Positions 4,001-36,844 of a DNA stretch of 64,000 nt are shown piece after piece. The stretch's first letter is position 1. Every line of letters starts with the position of its first letter. Origin of the DNA: a virus; the IMG/VR virus record IMGVR_UViG_3300028048_000003; one strand, written 5' to 3'. A program made the position numbers and the translations under genes. A model generated the notes under the pieces. That model had not been told where the DNA came from. It searched no databases and was given only the letters and a program-made list of their open reading frames with translations.

Positions 4001-7000
4001 ATTAGGAGTTTCAGACATGAATTGGCCATACATCATATTAGGAGTGATATAACGGCCTGTTGTGTCTTGGATTTCTTTCGACACCATTACCGCAAGTTTA
4101 GCAAGATACGGATTCGTGAAGGAACTGTAATCATACCCACCAGCATTGAGCCTAGAACCATCTGTCATACGATGTTCATCGTTTCGAGAATAATCCCTAG
4201 AATACTTCGTGCTGTTGTACTTCTTGTCAAATTCCTCGATGTAGTCAGGGAGAACCTTGTCTAATTGCTCATCGGAGAGGAAATTGCCATAGAGTTTCTT
4301 CCAAATCTCACCCTCAGATAACCCCTGTGAAGCAAGATTACCAAACTTTTCGAGGAGTTTATACAGAGAATCAAATGGGTCAGAACCACCTGTCATAAAC
4401 AAATCGCTGATACCAGAGAAGTTTATATTCTTAGCGTCCTTGCCATAGAGCATATTGAGAAGACTGAACAAGGAAGACTCTTTCACGCCGTACTTGGCAA
4501 AGTCACCGCGGGACATCATATCTTTAGCCGTAGCGATAGCCTGTTGCTGTTCGTCAGAGTAGTTTATGTACTCTTTCGGTTCTTTCTTGTTATGGCCATG
4601 ATTATGCTTTTGCTTGTGATTACCAAAATCGACGGAATCTTTGCCCTCGTTGTTGCGTCCCCTTGTCGGGTCAACTTGCTCTTCTTTTGGACTCTTTGTG
4701 CCATTAGCTATCTGCTCTTCAATTTTTGTGAGTTCCGCTGTTTTAGCGTCATTCTCACTTATCTCTTGCTGGAGAGCTGTAACGATACCCTCTTGTTCTT
4801 CTATTTGTTCTGCGGTTCTCTCTTGTTGGAGAGATGAGATGTCACCGTTATTCCTTAACGCCGTATCCCATGTAGTATAAGCATTTTTAGCGTATTGAAC
4901 TAAAGCGTCCTTTGTACTATTTATAGACTCTACCCATGACTCTGGAAGAATCTTCTTCATCATAGGGCTGTTAGCAGCGTTGGCAAGGACAGTCATTCCC
5001 TCTGCCGCAGCGCCACATGCTGCAAATATCACAGCTCCAAATTTTTGGTAAATCAGTCCAAGTAGACTAACCGACGAACCTTCTGCTTTCATGGCTTTAA
5101 TTCGTCTCTGTGTAGCTTCGAGCATGGCGTTCTTAGCAGCATTTTCGGAAGCAATTTCACCCTTCATAGATTCTATTTTTTGAAGCGCTTTAGCTCTATC
5201 GCTGTTAGACAGTTTCATAATCATAGAAAGGTTCATCTTACCATCTTTGAGGAATTGGTCAGAGTTGGTATGAAGAATTTCTGCTATCTGGTCGCTGATT
5301 TGCCCTTGCTCTTGCTTGATTTCATTAATTCTTTGGACGGATTCTGCGTTTTCATCATTGGCAGCAGTAAGCTGTTCGAGTTCGTCTTCAAGTTCATTGT
5401 ACTTAGTAGCAAGTTTCTCAGCCTGTTGTACGCTTTCGTCTACCTCATTGTAGGTGTCAGCCCATTGTTCAGCCTGTTCTTTAAGTGTAGCCGTCAGGTT
5501 TTCTTGCTCCTCTCGATACGCTTCATACTCTGCGGCTGCTTGACCAGCTTCTTCTGACGTTTCGAGGAGATATGTACCGATTAGTGTGAGAGCGGTAATT
5601 ACTAAACCAATAGGCCCTCCAAAACTATCGAGGACAACGTTGAATATCTTCATAGCCGTGCTGGCTCTTCCAATACCAACAGCAGACATCCTAGCGGCAT
5701 CACCAAGAGCAATTACTCTAGTCCGTGCGGTAGTCAGGTCAACTTTGTAGAGTTTTGCCATCCTATCCGCGATTTGCATCTGCCTAGAGAAAGAGAGATT
5801 AGCTCTTCGAGCAAGTTCCGTAGAGTTCTTGAACTGCTTGTTGATTCTATTTGCCCTATTTAGTTCCGTTGCATACTGCTTAGTTTGACGAATCGAGGAA
5901 ACAGTAGCAAGTGCGGCCACGTCCTTCTGAGTGCTCATAACAGGATTCAATTTACTCATAAGAGCAGCGTTGCGAGAAGCCTGATATTGAGCTTGGATAT
6001 TGGCAATAGGATTGGAAATATTGATAGAGCTACCGCCGTTTCTCCATGTAGCACTAGCCTTACCTAAGTTTCGTGCGATTTGGTTGATTAGCGGTGGCAG
6101 GAGTTTATATGCGGCAACGACTGCAAGAATACCTTTAGCGTACTTATAGGCATTTGACTCACCAGAAGAAAGACCTTTAACAAGGTTATTGAGGATATTG
6201 AGAACCCATTTCAGGTCATTGAGCAGACCGTTATTGCCATTTGACATGAAGAGCTTTGCGATGTTCGCTTTCAGAGTTTCTACCTTGCGGGCAACCGTGT
6301 CCATCTGGAGTGCTAACTGTTGATTAGTAAACCCAGCTGCATTTTTCGTAAGCTCAATGGTACGCTTTAACTCGTTGTAATTTTTCAAGAGAGCGATTGT
6401 CTTAGACGATTGCCACTTACCACCAGAGATAGCAAGCATAAAATCAGACAAGGACTTAGAATCAAGGTTTGTGTGTTGCAGTCCTTTGGAAATATCAAGA
6501 ATCAAGTCTTCAACAGGACGTAACTCTTTCTTTCCGTTTGCGCCAATCTTATAAACCTCAATACCAAATTTTTGCATAGCCTTGACAGCCTTATCAGACT
6601 GAATTGAAGCAAACAAAGATTTCAGCATTGTACCGATTTCATTACCACTCTTAGCCGTTGTACGAACACCAGTTGCGATAAGTGCATTTAAGAAACCGAA
6701 GGAGACACCAGCAGCGTCCGCGGCGGCTCCTGATTGCTTAACACCTTCTGTCAAATCCTGTGCCGACGCACCAGACGTATGAGCAAGTTTCGTCCACACA
6801 TCGAGAATATGAGTAGAACGTGCCATCAAGAGGTTGCTGTCCTCTGTCTGCATGTTGAACTGGGAAAGTGCCGACTCAAGACCAAGTACAGCGTCCTTCA
6901 TCTCAAAGTTATCTGTGGTAGCCATCTTAGCCGCTTGCGCCGTCAGGATTTCAGTATTCCTAGCACCTACGTCAGCGTCACCGCCACCTTGGCCATACAA

Positions 7001-9910
7001 ACGACCAACAGACCTCGCCGCGTCAAGGACATTATCAGCAGACTGTCCGAATTGAGCACCGATAGAAACAAACTTTGAGAACTCTCCGTTCATCGCCGCT
7101 TGTCCTTCTTCTACCTTCGGCAACACCTGTGCGATACCAGCCATAGCTAACTCGTACTTTGTTACGTCAGAAACCACATCGGACGGGAAACTGATAATAT
7201 GGTTCTCGATAGAACTACCAATCGCCCAGTTAGCAGATTCTCTTGCTCGTCTGAGGATGTTCTCTACATTGAGCGCATGACGCGGGGACTTAGCGATTTC
7301 TTCGTTAAACCGTTCTGCCTGACGATTAAGAAGCCTGAGTTCTTGCCGTGCCTTTTCAAAACCAATCTTATCGGCCGTGGAGTGTGTCTGTTGGAGTTGG
7401 AGATAAAGGTCTTGGGCGTTCTTACGCGCTTCGGAGAGCCGTCGGTTGAACGAATCGGAGATAGTGAGAGCTTCTTCCTTGTTCGCCTTGATAGGCTCTG
7501 GCTTTTTGACATTATCCCAACGTTTTACGCCCTTCAAAAGCGACTCGTCAATTCCATCAGTAGGATGACCGAGGTCTTTGAGTTTTTTTGCAATATCCTC
7601 GATACGGTGCTTTTCCGCAAGGTAGCCAGCCTGAGTATAAACGATTCCTTTTTCACCAGTATGGTCTGCGATATTACGCTTTACCTTTTCAAGAGCTTCG
7701 AGCTGCTTGATGATATTAGCTTGTCTTGTAGCTTCTTCTGCGGCAGCTTCTTTAGCTTGCTTTTCTCGCTCTTTCTGTGCCTTTACTTCTTCCTCCATCT
7801 GGCTTTTAAGGAGTGAAGAGTATTTCTTAGCGGAGATTTCTCTTTGCTTGATTTGCTCATCGAAAAGGTTAGTGACCTTCATATCACTACGCGCTTTTTC
7901 AATGTCTTTCAAGCTCATTGGCTGATTCTGTACGTTCTTTACATAGTCAGCGTACCTACCCTCAGAGAACGGATTTTTTGTAGACAGGTCACCTTTTAGT
8001 TCAGACAGGACTTTGCGAAGTGCGATAATGCGTTGACGAGCTTGTTCCCACTTACGTTCATTGAGAATAGTACCGTTGTCTCTGCTGTTCCATCCGCTGT
8101 TGACAAGTTTATCATGCTCTTTCTGAGCGGCTTCAAGTCGTTTTGCAGGTTCTTCGCCAAGTTTTTTGCTTACAGACTGTTTGAGTTCCTCGAAATGCCT
8201 ACGAAGGGTTTCAAGTGTTGTAAGGTACTTTCTAGCGTCCCTGTCAGCGCGGTTGATACCTTGAGCAAAATCACCGTTGCCGAGCTGTTGAAGAAGTGCT
8301 TCCGCCTGAGTGATTCTAGCGAGGGCGCGTCCGTACTTGCCGAGGGATTCGTCCTGCTCTGCTCCCTTTTTCAAAAGTTGTACAAGGTCATTCTGTTGCT
8401 TAGAAACATCAACCTTTGTGTCGTTGGTTTTCTTCCCGCTTGCGTAAGCCTTGCGAAGTTCTTCCTCTTTAGCGCGGATTTGCGAATCGAGGGTCTTTAC
8501 TTCTGGTTTCTCAGGGGCTTTCTTTTCTTTGGATGATTCTTTCTTCTCTGCTTCTGCCTGTGCCTTGCGTTCCGCTGCCTTTTCAACGACATCCTTACCG
8601 AATTTCTTGAGTGTATCACGAGCCGCGTTTACAACAGCAAATGCGTTGGCAATAGAGGAAAAGTCGATATGTGCCGCGTTCCACAGGTATTCATACATAG
8701 AGCGCGTATCGGCAGCAAGAGCATTGATAGCGGAAACAGGGAGAGACTTACCTACATTTTCCCATGCGCGAGAAAGGCGTTCTGTATAGTCCTTGATGTC
8801 CTCATTCGCATCCGTACTCTTGACAGGCGGTTTCTTTGCCTTGGGAGTAGTAGTTTCCTTGACGTTCAGTCTCGGCAGTTCGGGAATCTTGATGTTCTTG
8901 AAGCTCTCGTTAATCTCGCGTGCCAGCTTCTTCGTCGATTCGGCCATAGCGGCTGTCTTATCGTTGGCATTGACCAGACTTGAATTAACTTTTGTGTCAA
9001 GAACGTTAGCAATTTCCAGCCATTTCTTTTTGATACCGTCGAGAAGCCCAGTGGCTTCGGCATACTCATCCAGAATAGCCTTAACTGCCTTTTCGGAGAA
9101 ACTATTATCTGTTGTAAGAGCTTCTTTAGCGTTCTTCTTTGCCGCCGCCTTTGCCTTTGCAGCTTCTTTTTCCTTTTCCGCTTCTCTTTTCGCTTGAGCC
9201 GCCTTTGCAGCAGAAAGAAGATTATACTCACTCCTAAGAGCGCGGATTTCCTCTCTCTGTCCTTCTACGGAGAGTTCTTTGGGAAGTCCCTTGACTTTAT
9301 TAAGTCCTGAGATAAAGTTACCCAAATCCATCTTGACTAAATTATTGCCAGCGAGAGAATGTAAGTCTTTTTTGATATTAGCTAAATTTTTACTAACGAT
9401 ACCAGAATAAGTTCTTACATTGTCAGCGGCTTTCTTTAAGTCGATACCCTCAACAGATTTTGTCCTTATTTTCTCCGCTGCCGAAGCAATCTCATTGATA
9501 GCAGTTTTGATAGTCTTAGATTGTTTAAGGAACTTGTCAAGGGCATCATCATGTGCCTTTGCTGTCTCTTCTGCGGCTTTTTTTACGTCTTTTGAGGCAT
9601 TGATTTGCTCTTTAGACGCATTGACACTCTCTTGCAGTTTCTTATTCACATCGCCAATCTCTTTAGTCATGGTCGTTAAACCAAGTGATTTAGAGATTTT
9701 TTCAAGGTTCTGTGCTAGTTTAAGGGCAGAGCCACCAGTCTCATTCAAGGACGAGATGATAGACTTTCTGTATTCATCCTTGAAGTCGGTGAACTTAATG
9801 TCGTTGATGGAACTGAGCGCATCTTTTACTTTTTCGAGGTTAGTAAGAGACTTGCCAATTTCAACTTCCAAGTTATATGAGATTTTCGTAGACTTAGAAT
9901 CGTCTGGCAT
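1034..9910 (-). CDS. tape measure protein, 2958 aa, with embedded muralytic-type domains
   Basis: Single giant ORF downstream of the tail chaperone. It has long coiled-coil-like K/E/A-rich stretches, hydrophobic segments, and a Gly/Ser/Thr-rich C-terminal part. An internal CHAP/NlpC-like block (QCSSWVSY ... WRGHVGIYDG) is present. Confidence 0.85.
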   Translation of the reverse strand: MPDDSKSTKISYNLEVEIGKSLTNLEKVKDALSSINDIKFTDFKDEYRKSIISSLNETGGSALKLAQNLEKISKSLGLTTMTKEIGDVNKKLQESVNASKEQINASKDVKKAAEETAKAHDDALDKFLKQSKTIKTAINEIASAAEKIRTKSVEGIDLKKAADNVRTYSGIVSKNLANIKKDLHSLAGNNLVKMDLGNFISGLNKVKGLPKELSVEGQREEIRALRSEYNLLSAAKAAQAKREAEKEKEAAKAKAAAKKNAKEALTTDNSFSEKAVKAILDEYAEATGLLDGIKKKWLEIANVLDTKVNSSLVNANDKTAAMAESTKKLAREINESFKNIKIPELPRLNVKETTTPKAKKPPVKSTDANEDIKDYTERLSRAWENVGKSLPVSAINALAADTRSMYEYLWNAAHIDFSSIANAFAVVNAARDTLKKFGKDVVEKAAERKAQAEAEKKESSKEKKAPEKPEVKTLDSQIRAKEEELRKAYASGKKTNDTKVDVSKQQNDLVQLLKKGAEQDESLGKYGRALARITQAEALLQQLGNGDFAQGINRADRDARKYLTTLETLRRHFEELKQSVSKKLGEEPAKRLEAAQKEHDKLVNSGWNSRDNGTILNERKWEQARQRIIALRKVLSELKGDLSTKNPFSEGRYADYVKNVQNQPMSLKDIEKARSDMKVTNLFDEQIKQREISAKKYSSLLKSQMEEEVKAQKEREKQAKEAAAEEATRQANIIKQLEALEKVKRNIADHTGEKGIVYTQAGYLAEKHRIEDIAKKLKDLGHPTDGIDESLLKGVKRWDNVKKPEPIKANKEEALTISDSFNRRLSEARKNAQDLYLQLQQTHSTADKIGFEKARQELRLLNRQAERFNEEIAKSPRHALNVENILRRARESANWAIGSSIENHIISFPSDVVSDVTKYELAMAGIAQVLPKVEEGQAAMNGEFSKFVSIGAQFGQSADNVLDAARSVGRLYGQGGGDADVGARNTEILTAQAAKMATTDNFEMKDAVLGLESALSQFNMQTEDSNLLMARSTHILDVWTKLAHTSGASAQDLTEGVKQSGAAADAAGVSFGFLNALIATGVRTTAKSGNEIGTMLKSLFASIQSDKAVKAMQKFGIEVYKIGANGKKELRPVEDLILDISKGLQHTNLDSKSLSDFMLAISGGKWQSSKTIALLKNYNELKRTIELTKNAAGFTNQQLALQMDTVARKVETLKANIAKLFMSNGNNGLLNDLKWVLNILNNLVKGLSSGESNAYKYAKGILAVVAAYKLLPPLINQIARNLGKASATWRNGGSSINISNPIANIQAQYQASRNAALMSKLNPVMSTQKDVAALATVSSIRQTKQYATELNRANRINKQFKNSTELARRANLSFSRQMQIADRMAKLYKVDLTTARTRVIALGDAARMSAVGIGRASTAMKIFNVVLDSFGGPIGLVITALTLIGTYLLETSEEAGQAAAEYEAYREEQENLTATLKEQAEQWADTYNEVDESVQQAEKLATKYNELEDELEQLTAANDENAESVQRINEIKQEQGQISDQIAEILHTNSDQFLKDGKMNLSMIMKLSNSDRAKALQKIESMKGEIASENAAKNAMLEATQRRIKAMKAEGSSVSLLGLIYQKFGAVIFAACGAAAEGMTVLANAANSPMMKKILPESWVESINSTKDALVQYAKNAYTTWDTALRNNGDISSLQQERTAEQIEEQEGIVTALQQEISENDAKTAELTKIEEQIANGTKSPKEEQVDPTRGRNNEGKDSVDFGNHKQKHNHGHNKKEPKEYINYSDEQQQAIATAKDMMSRGDFAKYGVKESSLFSLLNMLYGKDAKNINFSGISDLFMTGGSDPFDSLYKLLEKFGNLASQGLSEGEIWKKLYGNFLSDEQLDKVLPDYIEEFDKKYNSTKYSRDYSRNDEHRMTDGSRLNAGGYDYSSFTNPYLAKLAVMVSKEIQDTTGRYITPNMMYGQFMSETPNVTEFTTNANIGGYMESFSDEADLIDKLAKTYIRGDAYNGMRYDDAKTATDWYNVGHANGWPDDEDGYKYSRSIDQYANESGWNTAAQTIGENIGEAMVKEADAHAGEQWRGIDAGFDDNSSWESQCSSWVSYMMNKHGITSVNSPNGDTLMGQAGSAYHAGEAPLNAGDIINWRGHVGIYDGNGGYIARNSRGGVHHGTMEEAQQYFGAVLGRVDIKELAKTNGVKYGSPSISSSESVDRWEKYRGENAFHRNGIEEAAYRYESDQKHYEREQKRLETEAKLSGYTAEIYKKIAANEEAKLKSTETTLSYWRAVQQNGEDFLKDYSDKFSGFKSFLSENNLSIEGIKTLPDSEIQEIAKKFDKEGKGDFTKAINSLIKSRSQLESLESNYAEDKAEHDRKVYGSMSPTERLDAQLESLSNAHEHKINGMTDSESYMENMRFYAQKLDILQKKYDWIHSQLSKAESSDYEKRSGWETERDAEQKRLDLLIEKRKTLTSEDKTLNAEIQKVSKHVDELTDRIDQNREHGSEATQQYKKDLAEVQKSIDDVKKSLNAVTDELADIIENGVHNMFSDVLLEGKSFKESWKSLWNDIAKLALRQILRVQMQKWGLKDILSGENITRRVQRRNFVHNVGRVGGFMSGWSGNVLDKIPSSRYGATNQFGGKADYNRAFQQLSQKLNLNTLAIRKGTTVANAVATVQKAATVATQSASIKNSLATGQQVLATNLSSNQMSLLNATNQRNTIAVQGNTNADISNTSATTANTTALQMQGATSSMGGAAGIGGSSSGGGMGWAGYAGIAISLFSMFRKHADGGLIKGFATGGDTTGLIRGAGTGTSDSILTYLANRGQFIRTSNGEYIIKKSTVDKVGVGFLDTLNANPEAIAGMKRYADGGNLGESYEPVMSPKTVENYRKFNRNNTVIKTSSNKRLEQLMQQQNDMLAAMGSKDNGSGNMVVLNTQADSASVMRAIQKNPRAFQRIMGNQQRHGFR

Positions 9911-15485: not shown

Positions 15486-16508
15486 TTATGCGTGAAACTC
15501 GTCTTGGTGCTCATTCCAGAGCTGGATTTTCTTCGCCCATTTCTGCTCTGCCGTCAGCTTATCGTTATCGTCGATAGCCTTGGAAAGCTCCATAGCCGTC
15601 TTCTTCTCGCCATCGAAACGCGGGAGGGATGCAAAGTCAACCTTAGTCTTACGCTCAGGCTCTTTCTCCTCTTCCTTCGTCTCTACCTTCTTCTCGGCAA
15701 GTGCCTGTGCCATAGCATCCTTAACGCCAGCCGTGATAGCATCCTGCATAGCCGCAAAATCCATCTTCGGTTCATCCTGCTTCGGCTCGGCCTTGTCTTC
15801 AACCTTGGACAGCTTTTCAACCGTCTCCGTCAGCGTCTTAATAGATGCTTCGAGAGCGGAAAACTTAGCGTCGAAAGCCTTTTGCTGCTCATCGAGAGCG
15901 TTCTTCGTTTCCTCGTTCAATTCTTCATTCTCCTTATTCATCATGGAACACATAAACTTAGTATTCTGAAATGCCGCCTTGTTCTTGTAGAGGATTGCAA
16001 CCCCTGTGAAGTGCGCTCCCAGTCCCGTAAGAGTCTGTGCTTTATCGTCTCTCATTACACCATCAAAGTAAACTTCAACGGAGAAACCAAGAGACTCTTT
16101 CGCACTCTCAATCGTGTCGCACACATCGGGGAAATCATTCTTCCACAAATGACCAGCAACAGCAATTTCATTACCGTTCAAATGAGCTTCATCAACCACG
16201 CCAACCTTGAAGCGAGGAGCATGGTCTTTCAGATTGTATGCAGGGTCGCTAAAGAAATCGTCGCTCCATTGGACGTTTACGCCACTACCAGCAAGGGACT
16301 CCACATCAATGTTCTCACTACTGATAATGGTTTTATATCCCATAATGCCGCCGCATGGCGTACCGTCCGTGGGAGTATCAACATACCCAGCAACACCGCT
16401 GAAATTCAATACGTCAGGATTGTTCTCGTCCTGCATCGTACTGAAACTAGAGAAATTAAGCGTTACGCTCTTTCCCTCTGTCTTCTTCTGCTCGTTTTTT
16501 TTCGCCAT
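15486..16508 (-). CDS. scaffolding protein (possibly a protease-scaffold fusion)
   Basis: 340 aa. The C-terminal half is charged coiled coil (KALDEQQKAFDAKFSALEASIKTLTETVEKL...). It lies between the portal and capsid genes. Confidence 0.6.
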   Translation of the reverse strand: MAKKNEQKKTEGKSVTLNFSSFSTMQDENNPDVLNFSGVAGYVDTPTDGTPCGGIMGYKTIISSENIDVESLAGSGVNVQWSDDFFSDPAYNLKDHAPRFKVGVVDEAHLNGNEIAVAGHLWKNDFPDVCDTIESAKESLGFSVEVYFDGVMRDDKAQTLTGLGAHFTGVAILYKNKAAFQNTKFMCSMMNKENEELNEETKNALDEQQKAFDAKFSALEASIKTLTETVEKLSKVEDKAEPKQDEPKMDFAAMQDAITAGVKDAMAQALAEKKVETKEEEKEPERKTKVDFASLPRFDGEKKTAMELSKAIDDNDKLTAEQKWAKKIQLWNEHQDEFHA

Positions 16509-17811
16509 CAGTCTTCTTTTTCACATCCTCTTTTTGGTCTTTGCCTAAACCATTAAATCCACCAGTCTGTACAGCATATTTTTTATTCAATGCCGATTTC
16601 ATCTCTGCCTGAGTCATGTCATTATACGGACTATCAATATGCGGCATACCAATAGCATTTCTGTACTCTGCAAAGGTAATACCGTTATTGTTCCATTGTT
16701 CCGTGAGCATCGTCTGCTTCTGTTGCTTCTGCGTCAGCGTATCTTCAAAGACAAACTCGAATTTCAAATAGTCGCCCATGCCTAAACGACCAATGATTTT
16801 CTTGTTAATCTCATCGGCAAGCAGTAAGCAATACGGACGAATCGCCTCATTGAGCATAGACTCATTTTGCTCTTCCACAGTAGAACGGTCTGTATTACTG
16901 CCCTGACCAAGTTTCTTAGGGTCAATGCCAAAGGCGAGAGCAATCTCTGTGATTAACTCTTTTTGCCATTCAAGGAACAGACCTTCATCACCGTCAGCAC
17001 CAAGGTGAAGTGCTTGAGCACCCTTCGTACCGCCGATAATTGCCTGTTCACCACGTCCCTGTACCTCTTCACGCCAATACTTTCTGAACGCATCGAGGTC
17101 TGCCTGTGAGACGTTCTCCCCAAGGTCAAGAGCGTATTTAGGAATAGCATTGTCGGTTTGCGTAGAAGCGTATTCTTGAGCACTAGTCAACGCATTGATA
17201 TGCTGAAAAGCCGCTTCAATAGGAGACAATCCGTATGGCGTATCGACGGTCTTATTATGCTGCAAATAAAGAACATCCTTGTCATACAGATACGTCCTGT
17301 TCGCTCCTACGACCTGACAAAATCGGTAAAACTCTGGATTTGTGAAAAACCCTGTGACATATTCAAGAGCGAAACCGTTAATCGGATATAACTTCATTGG
17401 TCTGCGAATGTCTCCAGTGAAGACAATCTCTGCCGCTCCATTATCTCCAATCAAGGTTTCATTGATAACCTGTCCCCAAAAAGACTCGTAAGTGTCTGTC
17501 TCATTAGGATGCAGGATAATATTCTCCAATGCTTTGATAGCAGCACCATAGGTACGTTTATCTCCTGCATTGGTAGGGACAATCCTCCAATTCTGCGCTA
17601 ATACTCCGTCCCGAATAAGGGAAATAGCACGGTGAGGAATTGCCATTCGAGAAAAGTTCCGCAAGCTCCGTTCGTTCACTTTGATAAGCGAATCTTTTGG
17701 AGTGAAGTTAGGCAAAGAAATAATCGTCGTGGCAGACTGCCTTTGAAGGTGTCCGTCAGACGGTGTTTTAATGCCAAGGTGGAAAACTTTCCCGAAAGCT
17801 CTTATCTCCAT
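16456..17811 (-). CDS. portal protein
   Basis: About 451 aa, counted from the ATG at 17811 (MEIRAF...), immediately after terL. It has a charged C-terminal tail. Confidence 0.75.
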   Translation of the reverse strand: MEIRAFGKVFHLGIKTPSDGHLQRQSATTIISLPNFTPKDSLIKVNERSLRNFSRMAIPHRAISLIRDGVLAQNWRIVPTNAGDKRTYGAAIKALENIILHPNETDTYESFWGQVINETLIGDNGAAEIVFTGDIRRPMKLYPINGFALEYVTGFFTNPEFYRFCQVVGANRTYLYDKDVLYLQHNKTVDTPYGLSPIEAAFQHINALTSAQEYASTQTDNAIPKYALDLGENVSQADLDAFRKYWREEVQGRGEQAIIGGTKGAQALHLGADGDEGLFLEWQKELITEIALAFGIDPKKLGQGSNTDRSTVEEQNESMLNEAIRPYCLLLADEINKKIIGRLGMGDYLKFEFVFEDTLTQKQQKQTMLTEQWNNNGITFAEYRNAIGMPHIDSPYNDMTQAEMKSALNKKYAVQTGGFNGLGKDQKEDVKKKTDGEKKRAEEDRGKERNA

Positions 17812-19352
17812 TTTGTGAAAATCCCTCCCATCGGTGTTGGTTTCATGCGCGAGGATAGTCCTCCAAAAACAAGGCGGTGAGACATGTCTGGGAAAGCAGC
17901 AGAACAAATCATGTTAAGTGCATCCATTCCATCATCACTACCCTTTGGAAATCGTAGAAATTCGTTGACAAGTACAGTCTGGTCTTTACGGAACTTGATG
18001 TATTTGTTCTTGATTCTCGGAATCATACCGCGAAGACGTAACTGCTTTTCAACCTTGCTGTTGTACTCATTAATTGGAATCTGAATACCAGCGTTCAGAC
18101 CTCTCTTAGCGACTTCATCCTTGAACATCGCTTGGAACTGAACTGTCTCAATCGTCACCGAAACAAGGTGGCTCTGATACTTCATAGAACCAGCAATAAT
18201 GAGGTCAATGAGCCTGTCTGGTTTGAATCTTCCCATAGTCACATCAAGTACATAAAGGAATCCGTTCTCATCCTTACCAGCGAATATGATTGCTGCTCGG
18301 TCTGATTTTGCCTTACCAAGAGAGGGGTCAACAGCGCCATAAACTTCCTTGATTTCTGGAAGTTCATAGTAGTAATCAAACCACTCAGGAAGGAACTCCG
18401 CGTTAGCAGGGTCAATCGGTTCATTCTGATACTCACTTGCAAAAGAGCTACTATCGGAAACCCTAAGTTCCATCATGTTCTCGTAATAGTCTGGAGAACT
18501 CTCAGGCCAAAGAGATTCGACACCTTTAAGCATCTCGTCTCTGTGCTTCTGATAGAATTGATAGGCATCTTCGCCAGCTTTAGGGTTGTGCTCGTCCGTG
18601 AGGATTTGTTCCCAATCATCCCACAACGGAGAATCCGAAAAGTGCTGTACCGCTTGGTATCTCTTTCTGTCCCACATTGAGAACGCAGGAGCAGTTAAGA
18701 GCTTTTGCAGTAATGACTCATAGTGAAGTACCGTCCCAATGTAGATATAATCGCTTGTCGGCGTACCTACTGGAATAAGGGCTTTCATAAACCAGTTGAA
18801 CAACTTTTTTCGTTGCGCTTCTGTCTCTACGTTTTCATCGTTCTCCAAATCATCGATGATGATTAACTCAGGGCGAATCGAGCCGAACTTATTACCGCGA
18901 AGTTTCTGTCCAGCACCACGGCCATAAACCTGTACGCGGTTAGAAGTAATAATCTTATCTTGCGCCCATTTCTCTTCCGAAACGAGGTCACCAAAGTCGG
19001 TTTTGATAAGGTCATTTTCTTCAAGTTCTGTCTTTATCGCCGAAATGAAAGAACGCGCTTGGTCTAACGTATCAGAAACGAGCAAAATGTTCCTTTTGTA
19101 CTTGTAAACTATGCACCAGATAATCAGCAAAAACGAGATAACCTGCGACTTACCATGTCCGCGCGGAGCGGCTCGAACATAGAAGTTTTTTCGTCTTTTT
19201 CTCCTCAGAATCATGTCCTCTGCTGACTTGAAAATTTCCTTGTGTAAAGGGGAAAATGCACAAGAAAATACCGAGGGGAAATAGGTAAGAGCGAACTTTT
19301 CAAGGGAAGTAGCACAGTCTTTCATGCGCTGTCCCGCGTCCTCTCTATCCAT
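17802..19352 (-). CDS. terL: terminase large subunit
   Basis: 516 aa with Walker A-like APRGHGKS and Walker B-like LIIIDDLEN, plus a C-terminal nuclease-type region. It lies adjacent to the portal gene. Confidence 0.85.
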   Translation of the reverse strand: MDREDAGQRMKDCATSLEKFALTYFPSVFSCAFSPLHKEIFKSAEDMILRRKRRKNFYVRAAPRGHGKSQVISFLLIIWCIVYKYKRNILLVSDTLDQARSFISAIKTELEENDLIKTDFGDLVSEEKWAQDKIITSNRVQVYGRGAGQKLRGNKFGSIRPELIIIDDLENDENVETEAQRKKLFNWFMKALIPVGTPTSDYIYIGTVLHYESLLQKLLTAPAFSMWDRKRYQAVQHFSDSPLWDDWEQILTDEHNPKAGEDAYQFYQKHRDEMLKGVESLWPESSPDYYENMMELRVSDSSSFASEYQNEPIDPANAEFLPEWFDYYYELPEIKEVYGAVDPSLGKAKSDRAAIIFAGKDENGFLYVLDVTMGRFKPDRLIDLIIAGSMKYQSHLVSVTIETVQFQAMFKDEVAKRGLNAGIQIPINEYNSKVEKQLRLRGMIPRIKNKYIKFRKDQTVLVNEFLRFPKGSDDGMDALNMICSAAFPDMSHRLVFGGLSSRMKPTPMGGIFTKWR

Positions 19353-20738: not shown

Positions 20739-21243
20739 GTAAACTCCTTTCAGTGTTCGTCTAAAGCCGAATTGTCTTTTCCAGACAATCAAATGTTTGC
20801 TAATCGAGGAAATAGGGTTGTGACTGCCTACAAGCGGCGTAGCCGCATACCTAGCCATATAGATATACTTATACCTATTAGTCGCGCGAAGGGGCTTAGA
20901 GCGAATGTCAGGCGGTCGGTTTTTATCGACGGCGTGGCTTCGTGATACGCCCGAGCGCGTGGCGAGCGGAACACACCCCTTAGTTCGTCTGCTTGATATA
21001 TAAATACATCTACACAGATGGAAACATGAATGTTTCTTTTGCTAATCTCTTACAGAGAGTTTTACTAATCGGAGAAGTTGGTCGGGGGAGGCTTGCCAAA
21101 GCCGACACCGATATTATTTATTTAAGATATACGTAGTATAGATTAAATAAATAATACATTCTATTAACACCCTTGTATGTATGTATATATATTAGGTGAC
21201 ATAAAAATTACGCCATAGAGCGCTGCCTGTCAGATTTGCCCCC

Positions 21244-21495
21244 TCAGATGGTGATTTTTAGTCGATACAGAGACGGGACTCCCTGCTGGCGCGATGGCCT
21301 ATATCCAATCATTCCCTTCTCGATTAGTTCCCTTCTTGCTCTCTGTACTGTACAAATACTCATCCCAATATCCTTAGCCGCCTGACGGTCTGTGTAACAG
21401 AACTCTCCTTCTCTGCCCTTCCAAGACAGAATGAGAAACAGTTTCAATGCCGATGGCGAGGTTTCCTTGATTCTCTTGATAAATTCGTAGTTCAC
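21244..21495 (-). CDS. winged-helix/HTH DNA-binding protein
   Basis: 83 aa with a GTG start after AGGAGG. HTH-like segment: TDRQAAKDIGMSICTVQRARRELIEKGMI. Confidence 0.6.
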   Translation of the reverse strand: MNYEFIKRIKETSPSALKLFLILSWKGREGEFCYTDRQAAKDIGMSICTVQRARRELIEKGMIGYRPSRQQGVPSLYRLKITI

Positions 21496-21540
21496 TTCTT
21501 CCTCCTGTGATTCTTCTTCGTATCCTTATGGCATAAAATC

Positions 21541-21639
21541 CCTCTCATATATTATCCGCGGTGACTTTTCAACCAAAAACACGCTCAAACACATTAAAAT
21601 TACATTAGAATTATATTACAGAAAGCTATAAGACTTAAC
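21541..21639 (-). promoter_or_regulatory. conserved promoter-proximal element, copy B (upstream of the HTH gene)
   Basis: Same blocks, in the same order, as copy A at 20094-20199. Confidence 0.55.
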
Positions 21640-21668
21640 ATGATGTAATGCTACCCCGTAACACTCAA

Positions 21669-21920
21669 TCATACTGCCTTGACATCCCTTTTGCCATGCG
21701 CCCTCGGCGGCTCTGAAATTGCCCCCTTTTCGTGATACCTGACACTAGCGCGTAACACCGTGAGTAACGCCAAAAATTGCTGCTCATGTACACCCTCAAC
21801 AGACACCATTTTCCTCGATTCGTAAACTAAAAAACGCAAAGTGCTTGACGATGTATACGAGAATAAAGCGCCCCGTAGCTTGATCAAGTGTTTTTTGCAG
21901 GTCTGCCGAAAATTGCCCAC
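21669..21920 (-). CDS. doubtful ORF (83 aa)
   Basis: ORF-track entry only. It has a GTG start, a weak ribosome-binding site and no recognisable motif. Confidence 0.2.
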   Translation of the reverse strand: MGNFRQTCKKHLIKLRGALFSYTSSSTLRFLVYESRKMVSVEGVHEQQFLALLTVLRASVRYHEKGAISEPPRAHGKRDVKAV

Positions 21921-22050
21921 TCCCGACCCAATCCTTTAGCTAACTAAAGAGGCCGCGAGGCCTTGTGGCACTAGGGCTGACGGCGTTTTCACGTTGCATA
22001 ATTGATATTATAAAACGATTGATAATAATTCCCAATTAATATGGTTAATC

Positions 22051-22067
22051 AAATTGTCTGACAATTT
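22051..22067. repeat. perfect 17-bp palindrome AAATTGTC-T-GACAATTT (operator-like)
   Basis: Read directly. A second copy (ATTGTCTGACAAT) lies at 22561-22573 and a related half-site pair at about 23049-23066. Confidence 0.7.
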
Positions 22068-22266
22068 CTTATTGATAGATTTTCTCATTTACTTTGACCT
22101 TTTGTCCTATATCATTTCTGCATATTATACGCGCGTATTATGCCTTTTTTGTATGTACGCCCACAGTGGACACGTTACTAAAATATACCCCTCTAGGGTA
22201 TACTAAAGTCAAACTTAAATTTACACTCATTTTATCCAATTCAATTTAGCTAAATCGTTTTTATCC

Positions 22267-22379
22267 CTAGTAGTATCAAGGCTTTTCGCGCAGCCGAATC
22301 CCATTTAGTAATATCCTTTGTTACATAATCATATCTAGTATCATTAGGTCATATTCAATCATACCTAGTAATACCTTTG
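22267..22379. repeat. iteron-like direct repeats built on CTAGTA
   Basis: TAGTAATA(T)CCTTTG occurs at 22306 and 22366. AATCATA(T/C)CTAGTA occurs at 22327 and 22357. CTAGTA or TTAGTA occurs at 22267, 22305, 22335 and 22365, a spacing of about 30 bp. Confidence 0.6.
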
Positions 22380-22500
22380 CATATCGGAGAAGTATGTTTT
22401 AGTTCGCTAAAGTAAATAGTATTCATACTTGATTGCTATGTTTTAGTAAAGTAAAGAAACAGGAAAATAGTCCTATCAAGCGCCCGAAACCCTTATAATC

Positions 22501-22613
22501 ACTAGCTTTATCGCCCTTGTACTCTCTCAATGCACATTTGTTTTGCCTTATCAAATTATTATTGTCTGACAATTTATTTTTCTCAATGCCCGCCAGCCCT
22601 TGTATTTACTAGC
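22501..22613. repeat. ordered word array around the second palindrome
   Basis: Left of the palindrome, ACTAGC, GCCCTTGTA and TCTCAATGC sit at 22501, 22513 and 22525. To its right the same three words appear in reversed order at 22581, 22596 and 22608. All copies are in direct orientation. Confidence 0.6.
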
Positions 22614-22810
22614 CTCATCACTGTTTTCTATCTTTTTCTAATAAAATAAAATATCCATGCTCACATATCAACGCCTCTCCAGCCCAATAACTACGCCGCC
22701 TGATAGCCTTTTCGATTAGCAAAAAATCAACTGTTTCTCTCATATAAAAAATATACGCGAGGAAATCCCTTATTGATAATATTTCTCAAAAGAATTAAAA
22801 ATAAAAATGC

Positions 22811-22838
22811 TTGCACGTTATTCGTCGTGGGGTATAAC
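22811..22838 (+). promoter_or_regulatory. rightward early promoter (sigma70-type)
   Basis: TTGCAC (22811-22816), 16-nt spacer, TATAAC (22833-22838), at the AT-rich to GC-rich transition. Confidence 0.45.
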
Positions 22839-22844
22839 AAGGTT

Positions 22845-23450
22845 GTCCTTGAGATACGGAAGAAACAAGGGAGGCAAGAAAGAGAACCGTATCAAGAGAG
22901 GAAGCGCGGTTTTCCATTAGGCCGTGACAAGTAAATAATGACGCGCGACGCTCGCGGAAAATGACGTATAGACGTTGGAAACGTCGATAAACACAAAGCC
23001 CGACCGGAGACGAAAACCCCGCCGTAGTTCCTTCTAGTGATAGTTCTTTGACAATTTCATATTGTACGGAGGAAGTATCCTCTTTGAAGGGTTTGTATTG
23101 CCCGCGATGTTATTTCCGTCTGGCCAGCAGGCTGGATTGGATAGACGGAGCGCCCAGGCAATCGTGCAAATCTGGAAAAGTGTAACGCGAGTATCCTATA
23201 CAATATGATACCATATCGACGCATAAGTTTCGGGAACAGGGGAGACAGCCGCGGGCTGGAAAACCAGCTATCAACGCCGCCTTGTCTCTCACACGAGAAC
23301 CGGCCCGAAAAGACAGCACGGAGGGCGTTTACCGCGTCCGCTTGTTGGCAGCACGCTATTAATTTTAATAGTGCCGTAGGTCGAACACCAGGCTTTTAGC
23401 TGGGCAGTCACCGACCAAAAAACCCTATCAGCGGGGAGAAATCCCCGCTT
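22845..23450 (+). ncRNA. candidate large structured non-coding RNA, or a very long structured leader
   Basis: About 600 nt with no credible ORF and higher GC than its surroundings. At least 10 hairpins or helices can be read by eye; coordinates are given in the findings. It ends in a terminator-type hairpin. Confidence 0.45.
23430..23449 (+). terminator. hairpin T0: AGCGGGGA-gaaa-TCCCCGCT followed by TT
   Basis: 8-bp GC-rich stem with a GAAA loop. Flanked by ACCGACCA (23410-23417) and GTGCCGAG (23456-23463). Confidence 0.5.
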
Positions 23451-23535
23451 TCATCGTGCCGAGCAGGTGAGAGTCTGCAAGGCGCGCCTAATTTTTGCCA
23501 AGTCAACCTAGATAATGAATAAGGAGGGGCTATCT

Positions 23536-23964
23536 ATGAAAATCAAGTTCTACGAGCAGGCGGGGACGCTCCACATTATCCCAGAGCGCAAGCACGAGAT
23601 TCTCCATGGAATATGGAACGCCGTCCGCGATTGCCGCGACGCGATGAAGTGGACGGACGTGCCGCGCCGCAATCGCGGCAACGGCGTTCAAAAACCGCAG
23701 GTCAAGCGCCCGGCGCCGAAGTGCTTTATCCCGCCAGACAAGACGGTGGGTAGTCGCGAATACAAAATCGGCCGCAAGGGAAAAGTGATTTTCCGCTTTG
23801 ATTGGCACATCATCACGTTTTCACGCGACCGGCGCCGTCACGAGTGGAAAGTCACGCCCGAACAGTTCGCCGCGGCAGAATACGGCCTAAAGATGGGAAA
23901 ATTTGCCAATCTGGGAATTTTCTGCCAGCAGTTCATGCTCGCCGGTATGAAGGAGGTACACTAA
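23536..23964 (+). CDS. hypothetical protein (142 aa, GC-rich island)
   Basis: ATG at 23536, 8 nt after AAGGAGG. Basic protein. Confidence 0.6.
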   Translation: MKIKFYEQAGTLHIIPERKHEILHGIWNAVRDCRDAMKWTDVPRRNRGNGVQKPQVKRPAPKCFIPPDKTVGSREYKIGRKGKVIFRFDWHIITFSRDRRRHEWKVTPEQFAAAEYGLKMGKFANLGIFCQQFMLAGMKEVH

Positions 23965-30784: not shown

Positions 30785-30997
30785 ATGGATAACAATAACA
30801 ACGATACGGGAGAGATGCTCAAATGGTTTGGTATTATGCTGCTGGTTTATGCTGGCTTTTTTATCTTTGTCGGAGCATTAGCTGACTTCTTAGTATCTTG
30901 TGGGGCTAACCTAGGTGATGTATTGTTTGTATGTGTTGTATTGCTGATTATTGTATGCTCTTCGAGGGCATTTGAGGACTGGAAAGACAGACTGTGA
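30785..30997 (+). CDS. small membrane protein (70 aa, two transmembrane segments)
   Basis: AGGAGGA ribosome-binding site. Two hydrophobic helices. Confidence 0.55.
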   Translation: MDNNNNDTGEMLKWFGIMLLVYAGFFIFVGALADFLVSCGANLGDVLFVCVVLLIIVCSSRAFEDWKDRL

Positions 30998-31025
30998 TGA
31001 GAGTGGTAGAAAGGTGAGGAATAAC

Positions 31026-31907
31026 ATGACTTGGGATGAACTGTATAAGAAGATTGAGAAAGACCTATTCTCCTCGATGAGTGAGAACACAGCCAAAGGC
31101 TATTTAGCTGACATTAAAATGTTTGAATTTTCAGATAAGCCGTGCCGTGCTGCTGTTGAAAGAAAAAGAAAGGAGTGGCAGGACAAGGGGCTGTCTGGTA
31201 AGACTATCCAGAGGAGGTTTGCCGCGGTCAGATGGGTTCTCGATATGTACCCTCGCGAGTTTGGTCTTGACGATATTCTTGACATCAAGTCCGCTATGAA
31301 GCACGTTGACATCAATAACAAAGAGATGGTTTACGCCACGAAAGAACAGGCTGACAAGGTTATCTCTATGGCCGATGAACGGACAGCTCTCTGTGTAGCG
31401 ATGATGTTCTACGAGGGGATGCGCCGCGACGAGGTATACAACAACAGATTGCAGGACTGGGACATCAAGGGAGAAGATACTCTCAACGGCGGTGTTCCCG
31501 CTATCATTATCCCGCGCACGAAGAACGACGAACCGAGACGTGTACCATTAGCGCAGCAGACGATTGATTGTTTCCTCCGATATGTAAACGGTGACAGGGT
31601 ACGGAACGCCAGACTTATCGAGAACGTTTCCCCTAAGACTGCCACCTACACTATTCTCTCTACATACGGTAGGCTTCGCAGGGAATCTATCCAGCGTGAC
31701 GTAAAGAAAGCATCCATCGCCGCAGGATTTCCCCAGCTTCATTGTCACAGCTATCGCCACGGTCTTGCTACCTTGCTTGCTAAATCGGGGAGGGATTCTA
31801 TCTATATCGCAACAATGATGGGACACAAGAACCTTAACACAACTCGCCGCTATATCCACCTCTCCCCTGCCGACCTCAAGAAAGGAACAGAGGATGTGCT
31901 AAAGTGA
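31026..31907 (+). CDS. tyrosine recombinase (integrase or XerC/D-like resolvase)
   Basis: The C-terminal catalytic signature HSYRHGLAT ... MMGHKNLNTTRRYIH has the H-x-x-R and terminal Y context of tyrosine recombinases. ATG follows GGTGAGGA. Confidence 0.85.
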   Translation: MTWDELYKKIEKDLFSSMSENTAKGYLADIKMFEFSDKPCRAAVERKRKEWQDKGLSGKTIQRRFAAVRWVLDMYPREFGLDDILDIKSAMKHVDINNKEMVYATKEQADKVISMADERTALCVAMMFYEGMRRDEVYNNRLQDWDIKGEDTLNGGVPAIIIPRTKNDEPRRVPLAQQTIDCFLRYVNGDRVRNARLIENVSPKTATYTILSTYGRLRRESIQRDVKKASIAAGFPQLHCHSYRHGLATLLAKSGRDSIYIATMMGHKNLNTTRRYIHLSPADLKKGTEDVLK

Positions 31908-33926: not shown

Positions 33927-34889
33927 TTATCCAATCGCTCCACCTGCATGAGAAACACGGTCAGCCATTTCAGCTTTCTTGCCGTCGTTTGCTCTCTCAT
34001 ACTCTGTAAGATACCCTGTAATAATTTCTGTCACCTTGATATTCTCGCTCCCGCACTTCGGACAAGCACCATCGAAACTACCTTGATAGCCACAGTCCTT
34101 ACAGAAGCATTGTACCCAGTTCAGACCACCATAGACGATACCAGACTTATCCATATACTGAATGAGCTTTAGCACGCCCTCTGGATTGAACTTAGGCGTA
34201 TCTCCTGCTTCAATGTAAAAGATAGCTCCCGCGTTGCAATAGAGATGATAAGGTGCTTCGGTATCAATCTTCTTTTTCATGTCACACTTGAACGATACAG
34301 GGAGATGAAAACTATTGGTAAGGTACTCTTTGTCTGTGACGTTCGGAATTGTACCAAAGGTCTTCTTAGTCTTCTTCATCAGCGTGTAACATGCGCTCTC
34401 GCACGGACTGGCGAATAAGCTCACATTCAAATGAGTATCTTTCTTTGCCTTATCGACGCGCTTTCTCATCAATTTTATGATTTCAAGACCAAGTTCCTGA
34501 GACTTCCCCGATTCGCCGTGATGTTTGCCAGTAAGAACAATCAAGCACTCAGCAAGCCCGATGAATCCCATAGAAAGAGAGCCATTTTTCACCATAGGTT
34601 CAATCGTGTCATCCTCATCAAGCTCTGCTCCATCCTGATACCAATCGGCAACAAAAGGAATATCGCGCTTTTTCAGATTCTTGATAACGTCGTATCTCTC
34701 AAGTAGTTCACCAACTGCATCATCCATTGTCTCGTAGAGAATATCCCAGAACTCAGGCAGCGGGTCAGATGGGTTCTTCTCTTTTGCTTCGAGGGCAAGG
34801 TACGGAAGATTGATTGTATTGAACGCGAGATTACCACGCGCATCTGGGTTTTCATCACCGTTGACATTTCCTCGAACAGCAGTCCTACA
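33927..34889 (-). CDS. nrdD: anaerobic ribonucleoside-triphosphate reductase, exon 3
   Basis: Begins CRTAVRG. It contains the Zn ribbon CKDCGYQGSFDGACPKCG and a glycyl-radical-type ITGYL motif at the C-terminus. Confidence 0.85.
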   Translation of the reverse strand, partial: CRTAVRGNVNGDENPDARGNLAFNTINLPYLALEAKEKNPSDPLPEFWDILYETMDDAVGELLERYDVIKNLKKRDIPFVADWYQDGAELDEDDTIEPMVKNGSLSMGFIGLAECLIVLTGKHHGESGKSQELGLEIIKLMRKRVDKAKKDTHLNVSLFASPCESACYTLMKKTKKTFGTIPNVTDKEYLTNSFHLPVSFKCDMKKKIDTEAPYHLYCNAGAIFYIEAGDTPKFNPEGVLKLIQYMDKSGIVYGGLNWVQCFCKDCGYQGSFDGACPKCGSENIKVTEIITGYLTEYERANDGKKAEMADRVSHAGGAIG

Positions 34890-35130
34890 CATATAATCGA
34901 CTATCACTAGCCGTACTGACTATATCATCTACTATTTCTAGCAGCCCTCCGCTTCGGAACAGTACCTATCTCTGTCCCTACATGGTTACACTCATCACCA
35001 TTAGTCGATACACTTTACTGTTTCCAGTCTTAGCACGGACTCATCTCATAAAGACCTATCCGTTAGCACGAAAAATCGCACACCCTCTAGGTGAGGTTCA
35101 AAGGGTTTTACATGGGCTGAGGATTCGCTT
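34890..35130 (-). mobile_element. group I intron (241 nt, no ORF) in nrdD
   Basis: Exon 2 ends in U. The P1 helix pairs exon AUGGGU with intron GCCCAU, including a U-G wobble. The intron ends in G. Splicing restores in-frame ...YIGTMG/CRTAV.... It shares core blocks (GCTAACGG, CCGTGCTAAG) with the other two introns. Confidence 0.75.
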
Positions 35131-35643
35131 ACCCATAGTTCCAATATACTCAAGCGGCATACCGTCATACGCTTTAGAGTCGCAGAACACAAATCGCGGT
35201 TGAATACGCTTACCAACACACTCGATTGCAAGCTGCGTAATGTCAAAGTTCGGCTCACCTTCATGGAGGTTGATTCCATCTTTTACGCGATAACAAAGGT
35301 TCGGAAAGATAGGATTCTCTCCCTTGCCAAGACCAGCAATGTAAGCCTTGAACAAGTTTTTAGAAATCATCCTCGCCCACTTTGATGTATCTGTGCCAAA
35401 GTTTACGCTGGAGAAGGTGACTTGAGCGCCGCTACGTGACCTCATCATATTGCAATTATAAACAAACTGCTCCATCGCCTGATATACGGCTTTATCGGTA
35501 CGTTCAAGAGCAAGTTCTGCCGTTCTTTCTGTATTTACATACCCATCACCATATACCTCCTCGATTTGCTTCTTCTGGTACTCGTACTCACGCTGAACAT
35601 ACGGCGCAAGGTCAGTATCAAAGTTCAAAAATCCCTGCTGACA
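35131..35643 (-). CDS. nrdD: anaerobic ribonucleoside-triphosphate reductase, exon 2
   Basis: 171 codons. It is in frame with exons 1 and 3 once both introns are removed. Confidence 0.8.
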
Positions 35644-36069
35644 CATTCGAGGTTTCCCTCAGTCGTGCCTAGACTATCTCTTCACTCAAGCGGCTGACTC
35701 ACCGCTATCATCGTGCCTTGCACTACGGAATACGGAATTGCACCGTAAACCTCTTAGACTGCGTTAGTCAATTTAGTCGTTACACCTTGCTTGCTCTTTT
35801 TCTCTTTGATTTCACCTGATTTAGCCGCAAAATATCCGTCGTACTTTGTCGGATAAAATTCAATCCCGTTGAATAGCGTTTTATCACCTCCTTTTATTTT
35901 TAGAATAAAGAGCAAGCCTTGGCACGGTATTACCTGCTATCTTACGAAAGACCGTAGGTTCTCTTACGGAGCGTATTCGAGCGCAAGCCTTATTTAACTC
36001 CTACCGTTAGCCATGAAAACATGACACCCTAGATTTCTAGGTTCACAAGGTTACGCGGCCAGTTTATCG
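35644..36069 (-). mobile_element. group I intron (426 nt) in nrdD with a short remnant ORF
   Basis: P1 pairs exon GCGGU with intron GCCGC (U-G wobble), and the intron ends in G. A 16-mer near its 3' end, GTGAAGAGATAGTCTA, is identical to one in the dnaE intron. The junction may be off by a few nt. Confidence 0.7.
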
Positions 36070-36678
36070 ACCGCCGAACATGCTGTTCTGGCTGCTCTGC
36101 AAGATGATACATGCAAGAGCCGTAGCACTTCCAATGCGTTTCGGAGTACGAATACTTCCAACGCCATTTGAGAAGCCATTTTTCAGCATCTTCCCAAGAG
36201 GATTGAAAAAGCAATTAAACGTAATTCCGTAATATCCCAAATCGTGAATATAAACTCTACCTTTTCGGTGATTTTCTGCGTACTTCTTACTCATCCGCGA
36301 CAAATTAAACCGCTTTGTAGCCGCTTCTGCTACGGAATACATCTTACTTGCCGCTGAACCGTTAGCCGCATTAGCATTGTCGGTATTGATTGTAGAGTAC
36401 AGACGCGCAATTTCTTTATTCAAATCGCTGCCATACTCTCGGTAATCTGTGCGTTTCTGCCGATAGAGAATATACGCCTTGGCAACGTCAGGGTATTTCT
36501 CCATCAACTTCTTTTCAACAGCATCGTGAATCTCATCCACGGTTACGTCCCTATCGAACGAGATTTCATTAGCGATTTCCTTGCCAATCTCTGCACTCTT
36601 AGCGGCCTTTGTCACCGCATTTTCAATCTTTTCCTTCTTGAACGGCTCTTTCCGTCCGTCATGCTTCGTTACTGTCAT
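36070..36678 (-). CDS. nrdD: anaerobic ribonucleoside-triphosphate reductase, exon 1 (ATP-cone)
   Basis: Starts MTVTKHDGRKEPFKKEKIENAV (ATP-cone-like) and ends ...SSQNSMFGG. Confidence 0.8.
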
Positions 36679-36844
36679 TTTTCTCCTCCAAAACCTTATA
36701 CATACCTCCTGCTCGATAAGCAACTACTACGTTACCCTCGGCATCCTTAAACAAGTACACATCGCCACAAGCGCACCTAGCGTACCCATTCTCCATATAC
36801 TTATCCCACAGCACATCCCAGCACCTCATGCACTTGACTTTCAT
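36659..36844 (-). CDS. small Cys-containing protein (61 aa)
   Basis: CMRC ... CAC pattern. Coupled to neighbouring genes. Confidence 0.45.
   Translation of the reverse strand: MKVKCMRCWDVLWDKYMENGYARCACGDVYLFKDAEGNVVVAYRAGGMYKVLEEKNDSNEA

Follow-up and report, generated by a model that had tools for sequence, protein, structure and literature searches.

The roughly 680 bases between a conserved early promoter and the first early gene of this gut phage encode a large, intricately folded RNA that matches no catalogued family. The element was analyzed within a 64,000-nt stretch of phage DNA (the window), where it occupies positions 22811-23535. Fifteen homologous leaders from pig and human gut phage contigs support a plus-strand RNA fold with a conserved four-domain core of about 470 nt (23040-23510) and a swappable 5' module. 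In this phage the 5' module carries a solitary CRISPR-repeat-like unit, which suggests a role in countering bacterial CRISPR immunity, although transcription itself, the binding of Cas proteins, any anti-CRISPR effect and any role of the core are inferred.

Genomic setting and homologs of the leader

The window is a tailed phage of a Gram-positive-type host, using strong Shine-Dalgarno sites. Its annotated genes include those for the large terminase (TerL, 17802-19352, minus strand), the portal (16456-17907, minus), a 2958-aa tape-measure/minor-tail protein with an NlpC/P60 domain (1034-9910, minus), a GH25 lysin (60705-61304, minus), a tyrosine integrase (30951-31907, plus), a primase-helicase, a Rad52-like protein, a DNA methylase, a split NrdD and a split DNA polymerase, together with four tRNAs. 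The nearest isolated phages share only about 38% TerL identity and infect Faecalibacterium, Enterocloster and Bacillus. Structural genes run leftward and early genes rightward from a nearly ORF-free hub of about 2.6 kb (20858-23535), and the leader covers the right third of this hub.

As described in the sequence-only reading, the region opens with a promoter consisting of TTGCAC, a 16-nt spacer and TATAAC, and contains only two ORFs of 60 aa or more, 23110-23319 on the minus strand (69 aa) and 23205-23399 on the plus strand (64 aa). The GC content rises from 0.31-0.37 (22000-22900) to 0.49-0.54 (22900-23500). A consensus scan does not list the promoter because it requires T at position 6 of the -10 hexamer. 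Both hexamers are kept in all 13 homologs that reach that far, three of which (contigs L001, L050 and L051) have changed spacers or slightly changed hexamers. The first gene with a strong RBS (AAGGAGGGG) starts at ATG 23536. Its product (23536-23961) has 26 homologous proteins in the databases, and the window copy lacks residues 22-71 of the 192-aa form. The protein matches no Pfam or PHROG family, and its AlphaFold model (pLDDT 73) has no significant PDB neighbor, the best being a KTSC domain at E = 0.37. It thus gave no clue to an RNA partner.

The contigs of these homologous proteins, from pig and human gut metagenomes in Logan, ENA and IMG/VR, gave 15 distinct upstream regions. The AT-rich left part of the hub is 93-96% identical in many of them, while the candidate RNA region is only 73-83% identical, providing plenty of substitutions for comparison. 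Scans of IMG/VR, JGI metagenomes and GTDB genomes by DNA pattern gave only chance hits apart from the L001 contig, and a BLAST search of the leader region against phages gave no match. A covariance model of core domains 3 and 4, searched against 80 sources (the window plus 79 TerL-related loci), finds the element only in the window and in two contigs of the same clade, L066 and L067. Relatives with 73-83% TerL identity lack the hub and the RNA altogether, and the element is so far known only from one narrow clade of gut phages.

A conserved plus-strand RNA structure

The window sequence alone folds only modestly better than shuffles, and on both strands (z = -2.7 on plus and -2.1 on minus), and would therefore not have proved structure. 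The homologs do. RNAalifold on the 15-sequence alignment predicts 113 pairs, 46 of them with compensatory changes on both sides. An independent count on that structure shows that 97.3% of cells are paired, against 36-42% when partners are slid, that 47 pairs are changed on both sides, against 6-14 in the slid controls, and that 138 cells are changed on both sides, against 10-22. None of 500 shuffles reaches the observed percentage paired, number of double-changed pairs or covariation score. G-U cells outnumber A-C cells 246 to 19, and the same pairs are 97.3% canonical on the plus strand but would be only 83.3% canonical on the minus strand. The element is therefore a plus-strand RNA. Its parts are as follows.

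22811-22838 (+): early promoter, with -35 TTGCAC (22811-16) and -10 TATAAC (22833-38); the transcription start is inferred at about 22845. The same promoter is present in L067.
22846-22982 (+): 5' module specific to group 1 of the leaders, with hairpins at 22853-59/22887-93, 22944-47/22953-56 and 22971-75/22981-85; a different module replaces it in 7 other homologs.
22983-23017 (+): solitary CRISPR-repeat-like unit in sense orientation, GTCGATAAACACAAAGCCCGACCGGAGACGAAAAC, with the tag-like 3' end ACGAAAAC.
23005-23021 (+): short hairpin shared by both leader groups (81% of cells paired, 2 pairs with changes on both sides); in group 1 its loop carries the tag-like ACGAAAA.
23026-23062 (+): conserved linker (TAGTTCTTTGACAATTTCAT), which resembles a half-site of the palindrome ATTGTCTGACAAT found at 22053 and 22561.
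23082-23180 (+): core domain 1, a long irregular rod of six stacked helices, 23082-85/23177-80, 23089-98/23164-73, 23100-02/23157-59, 23103-05/23150-52, 23109-11/23144-46 and 23114-25/23130-41 (33 pairs, 16 with changes on both sides, 94-100% of cells paired).
23187-23498 (+): candidate long-range closing helix, 23187-91 (GCGAG) with 23494-98 (UUUGC), enclosing domains 2-4 and the two 3' hairpins; it is 94.5% paired, but all five pairs vary on one side only and none on both, so that it is plausible but not proven.
23221-23317 (+): core domain 2, with nested helices 23221-22/23316-17, 23228-29/23309-10, 23230-34/23304-08 (5 of 5 pairs changed on both sides) and 23240-46/23284-90 (4 of 7), and an inner hairpin 23254-59/23264-69 with an AAAA loop.
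23318-23377 (+): core domain 3, a multi-helix junction with closing helix 23318-21/23374-77 and hairpins 23324-28/23334-39, 23340-42/23350-52 and 23354-60/23367-73.
23379-23416 (+): core domain 4, a hairpin with internal loops, 23379-83/23412-16, 23385-86/23407-08 and 23389-91/23400-02 (100% of cells paired, 2 pairs with double changes).
23431-23448 (+): hairpin with stem GCGGGGA/UCCCCGC and loop GAAA (100% paired, 2 pairs with double changes).
23455-23486 (+): two-tier hairpin, 23455-60/23481-86 and 23464-67/23474-77, whose flanks TCATCGTGCCG and TAATTTTTGCC are nearly invariant; it is not a terminator by the scan, as the U run starts 6 nt after the stem.
23521-23538 (+): RBS AAGGAGGGG (23521-29) and start codon ATG (23536) of the first early gene (23536-23964, 142 aa).

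Peripheral hairpins come and go between relatives. The window lacks a second inner hairpin of domain 2 that is present in most homologs, and L051 has an extra one. A further long-range helix, 23216-20/23502-06, is not consistent across homologs when the alignment is inspected by eye. Of the nine helices proposed in the sequence-only reading, seven are counted as confirmed. These are 22853-59/22887-93 (one compensatory pair), 22971-85 (four pairs changed on both sides), 23242-48/23282-88 with inner 23255-68 (4 and 3 double-changed pairs), 23354-73, 23379-83/23412-16 and 23430-49, together with 22944-56, which is present but invariant and so uninformative. The helix at 23068-83 is weak, with 77% of cells paired and no double changes, and the pairing 23116-21/23143-48 with an inner CCAG/CTGG is out of register, as covariation supports 23114-25/23130-41 plus 23109-11/23144-46 instead.

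The possibility that the region is not an RNA element at all, but a missed protein gene, a DNA-level site such as an origin or packaging signal, or a set of chance hairpins, has some apparent support. A gene caller placed a 116-aa ORF over the promoter and 5' module in homolog L035, the region adjoins an AT-rich hub with iteron-like repeats and a replication-initiator-like HTH gene, and the folding z-scores of the window alone are similar on both strands. However, the 116-aa ORF is not conserved, and the longest stop-free stretches fall in different frames and strands from one homolog to the next. Variable columns are spread evenly over the three codon phases (90, 92 and 99 of about 152 each), and indels are frequently not multiples of three. 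Coding is thus excluded, while the double changes far exceed the controls and the excess of G-U over A-C cells points to a plus-strand RNA, not duplex DNA or the minus strand. This explanation is already largely refuted and very improbable.

Upstream of about 23005 the leaders fall into two groups with unrelated sequence. Group 1 consists of the window, L035, L047, L049, L039 and L001, and RNAalifold on these six sequences gives compensatory changes in the first and third hairpins of the 5' module. Group 2 has seven leaders, plus L067, and carries a different module. All 15 relatives share the core. This modularity, and the CRISPR-repeat-like unit described below, were missed in the sequence-only reading.

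The CRISPR-repeat-like unit and the array of a sister phage

Interestingly, L067, a contig whose TerL is 100% identical to that of the window, has the same promoter and leader but carries three identical 35-nt repeats with a period of 75, forming a 3-repeat, 2-spacer array in place of most of the rod. The 3' strands of the two outermost rod helices remain. The repeat, GTTGAAAAACAAAATCCCCGTAAGGGGACGGAAAC, ends in ACGGAAAC, the 5' tag of S. thermophilus type III-A crRNAs (PMC9297841), and the 12-mer GGGGACGGAAAC also ends a primer sequence that recurs in M. tuberculosis genotyping papers. One spacer matches the window at 51341-51377 (35/37), inside a small minus-strand gene. The other matches L001 40/40 and L067's own copy with one mismatch. 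In crRNA sense both spacers are complementary to the mRNAs of their targets, as type III targeting requires. That sense is antisense to the leader promoter, and in leader sense each repeat looks like an intrinsic terminator. BLAST searches with the 35-nt repeat gave only partial matches (66% of the query or less) in plasmids, some in records with many matching places suggestive of arrays, with no cas genes annotated in the one region inspected, and only chance-level matches (E of 1 or more) in phages.

The unit at 22983-23017 gives an ungapped, full-length, sense-oriented match of 25/35 to the L067 repeat, with the same GT.GA start, the central CCC...GG hairpin position and a GACG.AAAC end. 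It is the best match to the repeat anywhere in the 64-kb window on either strand, the next best being 23/35. Local-alignment scores are reached by 0/500 shuffles in L035 and L047, 1/500 in L001 and 29/500 in the window, so that the similarity is significant in the sister leaders but only moderate in the window itself. The sequences AAACACAAAGCCCGAC and GACGAAAAC are invariant among the six group-1 leaders, while the neighboring hairpins vary. On the other hand, the internal hairpin of the unit, although in the same position, is weaker (CC/GG) and only 2-3 bp, and its 3' third overlaps the hairpin at 23005-21, which the repeat-less group-2 leaders also have with a different loop. A degenerate pattern built from both sequences, with 21 fixed or two-base positions, matches only these two contigs in IMG/VR, which is what chance would give, and adds no independent support. 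The similarity between the tip of the rod (GUUUCCGUC, 23112-20) and the antisense of the L067 repeat is at chance level, being reached by 16-186 of 200 shuffles, and the sequence downstream of the unit, taken as a pseudo-spacer, has no target elsewhere in the window.

The unit fulfills the published working criteria for candidate RNA anti-CRISPRs (Racr, e.g. RacrIF1; Camara-Wilpert et al. 2023, PMC10651486), namely similarity to a CRISPR repeat, a solitary position and a promoter within 250 bp upstream in the same orientation. The -10 box ends at 22838, about 145 nt before the unit. There is no other repeat-like copy and no array-like periodic repeat in the window, which, with one unit and no spacer, has no CRISPR mini-array of the L067 kind, and no Cas family was found among the roughly 48 ORFs scanned, though not every ORF was scanned. 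Like Racrs, the unit lies at the head of an early region, and the cognate repeat family demonstrably carries spacers against this phage lineage. It differs in that it sits inside a structured leader of about 680 nt rather than a small discrete RNA, that its identity to the only available cognate repeat is 69-77%, and that the repeat family is type III-A-like, whereas the subtypes tested for Racr activity were I-C, I-E, I-F and V-A.

The best explanation, though tentative, is that the 5' module acts as a repeat mimic; the host and its CRISPR system are unknown. In this model the RNA is made first and abundantly on infection, and the solitary repeat mimics the CRISPR repeat of the host, which would resemble GTYGAWAAACAMAA..CCCG...GG.GACGRAAAC, and is bound, and probably cut 8 nt from its 3' end, by host Cas6. 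This would draw Cas6 and Csm subunits into non-productive complexes, in the way described for Racrs, while the structured core that follows, co-transcribed with the early genes, most likely acts as a stable scaffold or protective body of the same RNA. However, seven of 13 full leaders lack the repeat yet keep the core. The function of the core therefore cannot depend on the repeat, and the Racr idea does not explain it. Moreover, no terminator-like site follows the unit, which argues against a small discrete RNA, and the antisense array in L067 is not simply an expanded version of the sense repeat. A stronger version, which is improbable but not excluded, is that the whole 680-nt RNA is one RNA-only counter-defense device against type III immunity, in which the solitary repeat recruits Cas6 and loads Csm onto the transcript and the core then traps, mis-assembles or otherwise silences the complex, or soaks up its signaling molecules. 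The leader would then be a hot spot where phages of this clade swap CRISPR-derived modules, a sense repeat here and an antisense mini-array in L067.

Relationship to known leader and structured RNAs

The sequence-only reading proposed a large structured RNA, either a free ncRNA or an unusually long leader, that it could not place in a known family, and this interpretation is supported. No Rfam 15 family, including ROOL, GOLLD, OLE, HEARO and raiA, matches 22811-23535 at gathering threshold or at E<=10 with permissive filters, and the only two hits in 22400-23700 are chance-level and lie downstream, inside the first gene. The negative result is informative, since the same permissive mode detects sub-threshold group I intron (RF00028) signals exactly where two genes of this phage are split, in the DNA polymerase (56731-56957, 34.2 bits) and in NrdD (34897-35185, 19.2 bits). 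No RF00028 hit at E<=10 and no split flanking gene is found for the leader. Literature searches found no description of the element, which represents a new RNA family.

The choice between a free ncRNA and a leader is not settled, but no terminator-like site lies on the plus strand between 22811 and 23535, which favors at least co-transcription with the early operon. A purely cis-acting 5' UTR, which would control the operon by sensing a ligand or protein, by making RNA polymerase terminator-resistant, or by stabilizing the early mRNA and gating translation of the first gene, is possible though less likely than the mimic; the repeat resemblance would then be incidental. The structure ends about 25-35 nt before a strong RBS, the RNA is always found directly upstream of the same gene family, or of a partial homolog in L051, and in L067 the 3' part of the core and most of that gene are missing together. 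Riboswitches, T-box, HK022 put and EAR-type antitermination RNAs likewise lie, structured and co-transcribed, between a promoter and the first gene of an operon. However, no expression platform was found, as there is no terminator or antiterminator, and the consensus fold leaves the RBS region, which is itself variable, without conserved pairing. A length of 470-680 nt is far beyond known riboswitches or put/EAR-type antitermination RNAs, no such Rfam family matches, and this reading does not explain why CRISPR-derived elements occur twice in this leader.

A trans-acting ornate RNA of the ROOL/GOLLD/OLE kind, in which the core is released or accumulates as a stable, possibly multimeric particle with a function unrelated to CRISPR and the 5' module is an accessory, appears unlikely. 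The size, the many A-rich and GNRA-like loops, the variable peripheral hairpins, the strong covariation, the phage location and the conservation of the core independently of the 5' module are in line with it, and ROOL, GOLLD and OLE form RNA-only homo-oligomers (PMC12286853). On the other hand, the leader matches none of their covariance models, is positioned directly upstream of an RBS, shows no evidence here of a defined 3' end or of self-complementary contacts, and its GGCGCGCC palindrome is not conserved, L035 having GCACGCC.

Very few large, elaborately folded bacterial or phage RNAs are known, and each one has opened a new line of RNA structural biology. The present RNA has unusually clean covariation from only 15 sequences, a defined promoter and a defined genomic role at the head of an early operon, and it ties a large structured RNA to CRISPR-derived elements. 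If the repeat works as a mimic, it would be the first RNA anti-CRISPR candidate for type III systems and the first embedded in a large scaffold. Even if it does not, the locus gives a natural example of phage-against-phage or host-against-phage type III targeting, and of module swapping inside a non-coding RNA.

CRISPR-derived and repeat-like elements in the leader

A sister phage whose TerL is 100% identical (L067, IMGVR_UViG_3300045988_151346) carries a type III-A-like mini-array of three repeats and two spacers at 1250-1434, inside the homologous leader and antisense to the leader promoter. Spacer A matches the window at 51341-51377 (35/37), within a small minus-strand gene (51226-51423), while spacer B matches the related contig L001 at 40/40 and L067's own copy with one mismatch. 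Each repeat looks like an intrinsic terminator when read in leader sense. L067 also lacks core domain 4 through most of the first early gene.

In the homologous leaders L049 and L039, the loop of the first 5' hairpin (leader offset 58-78, equivalent to window 22860-22886) reads CCGAAAGGGGACGAAAGAAC, which resembles the 3' end of type III-A repeats, while the window, L001 and the homolog L035 have purine-rich variants ending in AGAAC. This may be a second, decayed repeat-like unit about 96 nt upstream of the main one. In addition, GGUUUUC and GAAAACC (window 22909-22915 and 23012-23018) are complementary and invariant in all six group-1 leaders; no variation bears on whether they pair, and pairing between them would cover the tag-like end of the solitary repeat.

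Split genes and group I intron matches

Two minus-strand genes of the window are split into separate ORFs, and weak or sub-threshold group I intron matches are located in both of them:

57701-58930 and 54863-56725 (-), the two ORFs of the DNA polymerase (54863-58930)
56833-57576, HNH endonuclease ORF between them
56731-56957, sub-threshold group I intron match (34.2 bits, E = 1.3e-6)
36064-36723, 35098-35646 and 33927-34907 (-), the three ORFs of the anaerobic ribonucleotide reductase NrdD (33927-36723)
34897-35185, weak group I intron match (19.2 bits)
35647-36063, gap of about 418 nt in NrdD with no match

The arrangement in the DNA polymerase is probably a group I intron with a homing endonuclease that is missed by the gathering cut-off of Rfam. 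In NrdD, the gap of about 418 nt may hold a second, unrecognized intron.

The first early protein and the AT-rich hub

The first early protein (23536-23964) is 142 aa in the window and lacks residues 22-71 of the 192-aa form, which is found in all 24 other aligned homologs. It has no Pfam or PHROG family and no significant structural neighbor, the best being a weak KTSC-domain resemblance.

The AT-rich hub to the left of the RNA (20858-22868) has almost no ORFs, yet it is 93-96% identical across many relatives and is more conserved than the RNA region. The following elements are found in the hub or next to it, with one half-site-like copy inside the leader:

22238, 22297 and 22357, repeats spaced 59-60 nt apart
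22393 and 22437, repeats spaced 44 nt apart
22053 and 22561, a perfect palindrome, ATTGTCTGACAAT
23043-57, a half-site-like copy of this palindrome inside the leader
21244-21495 (-), an 83-aa HTH protein resembling replication initiators, beside which the hub lies

The hub is probably an origin or operator region.
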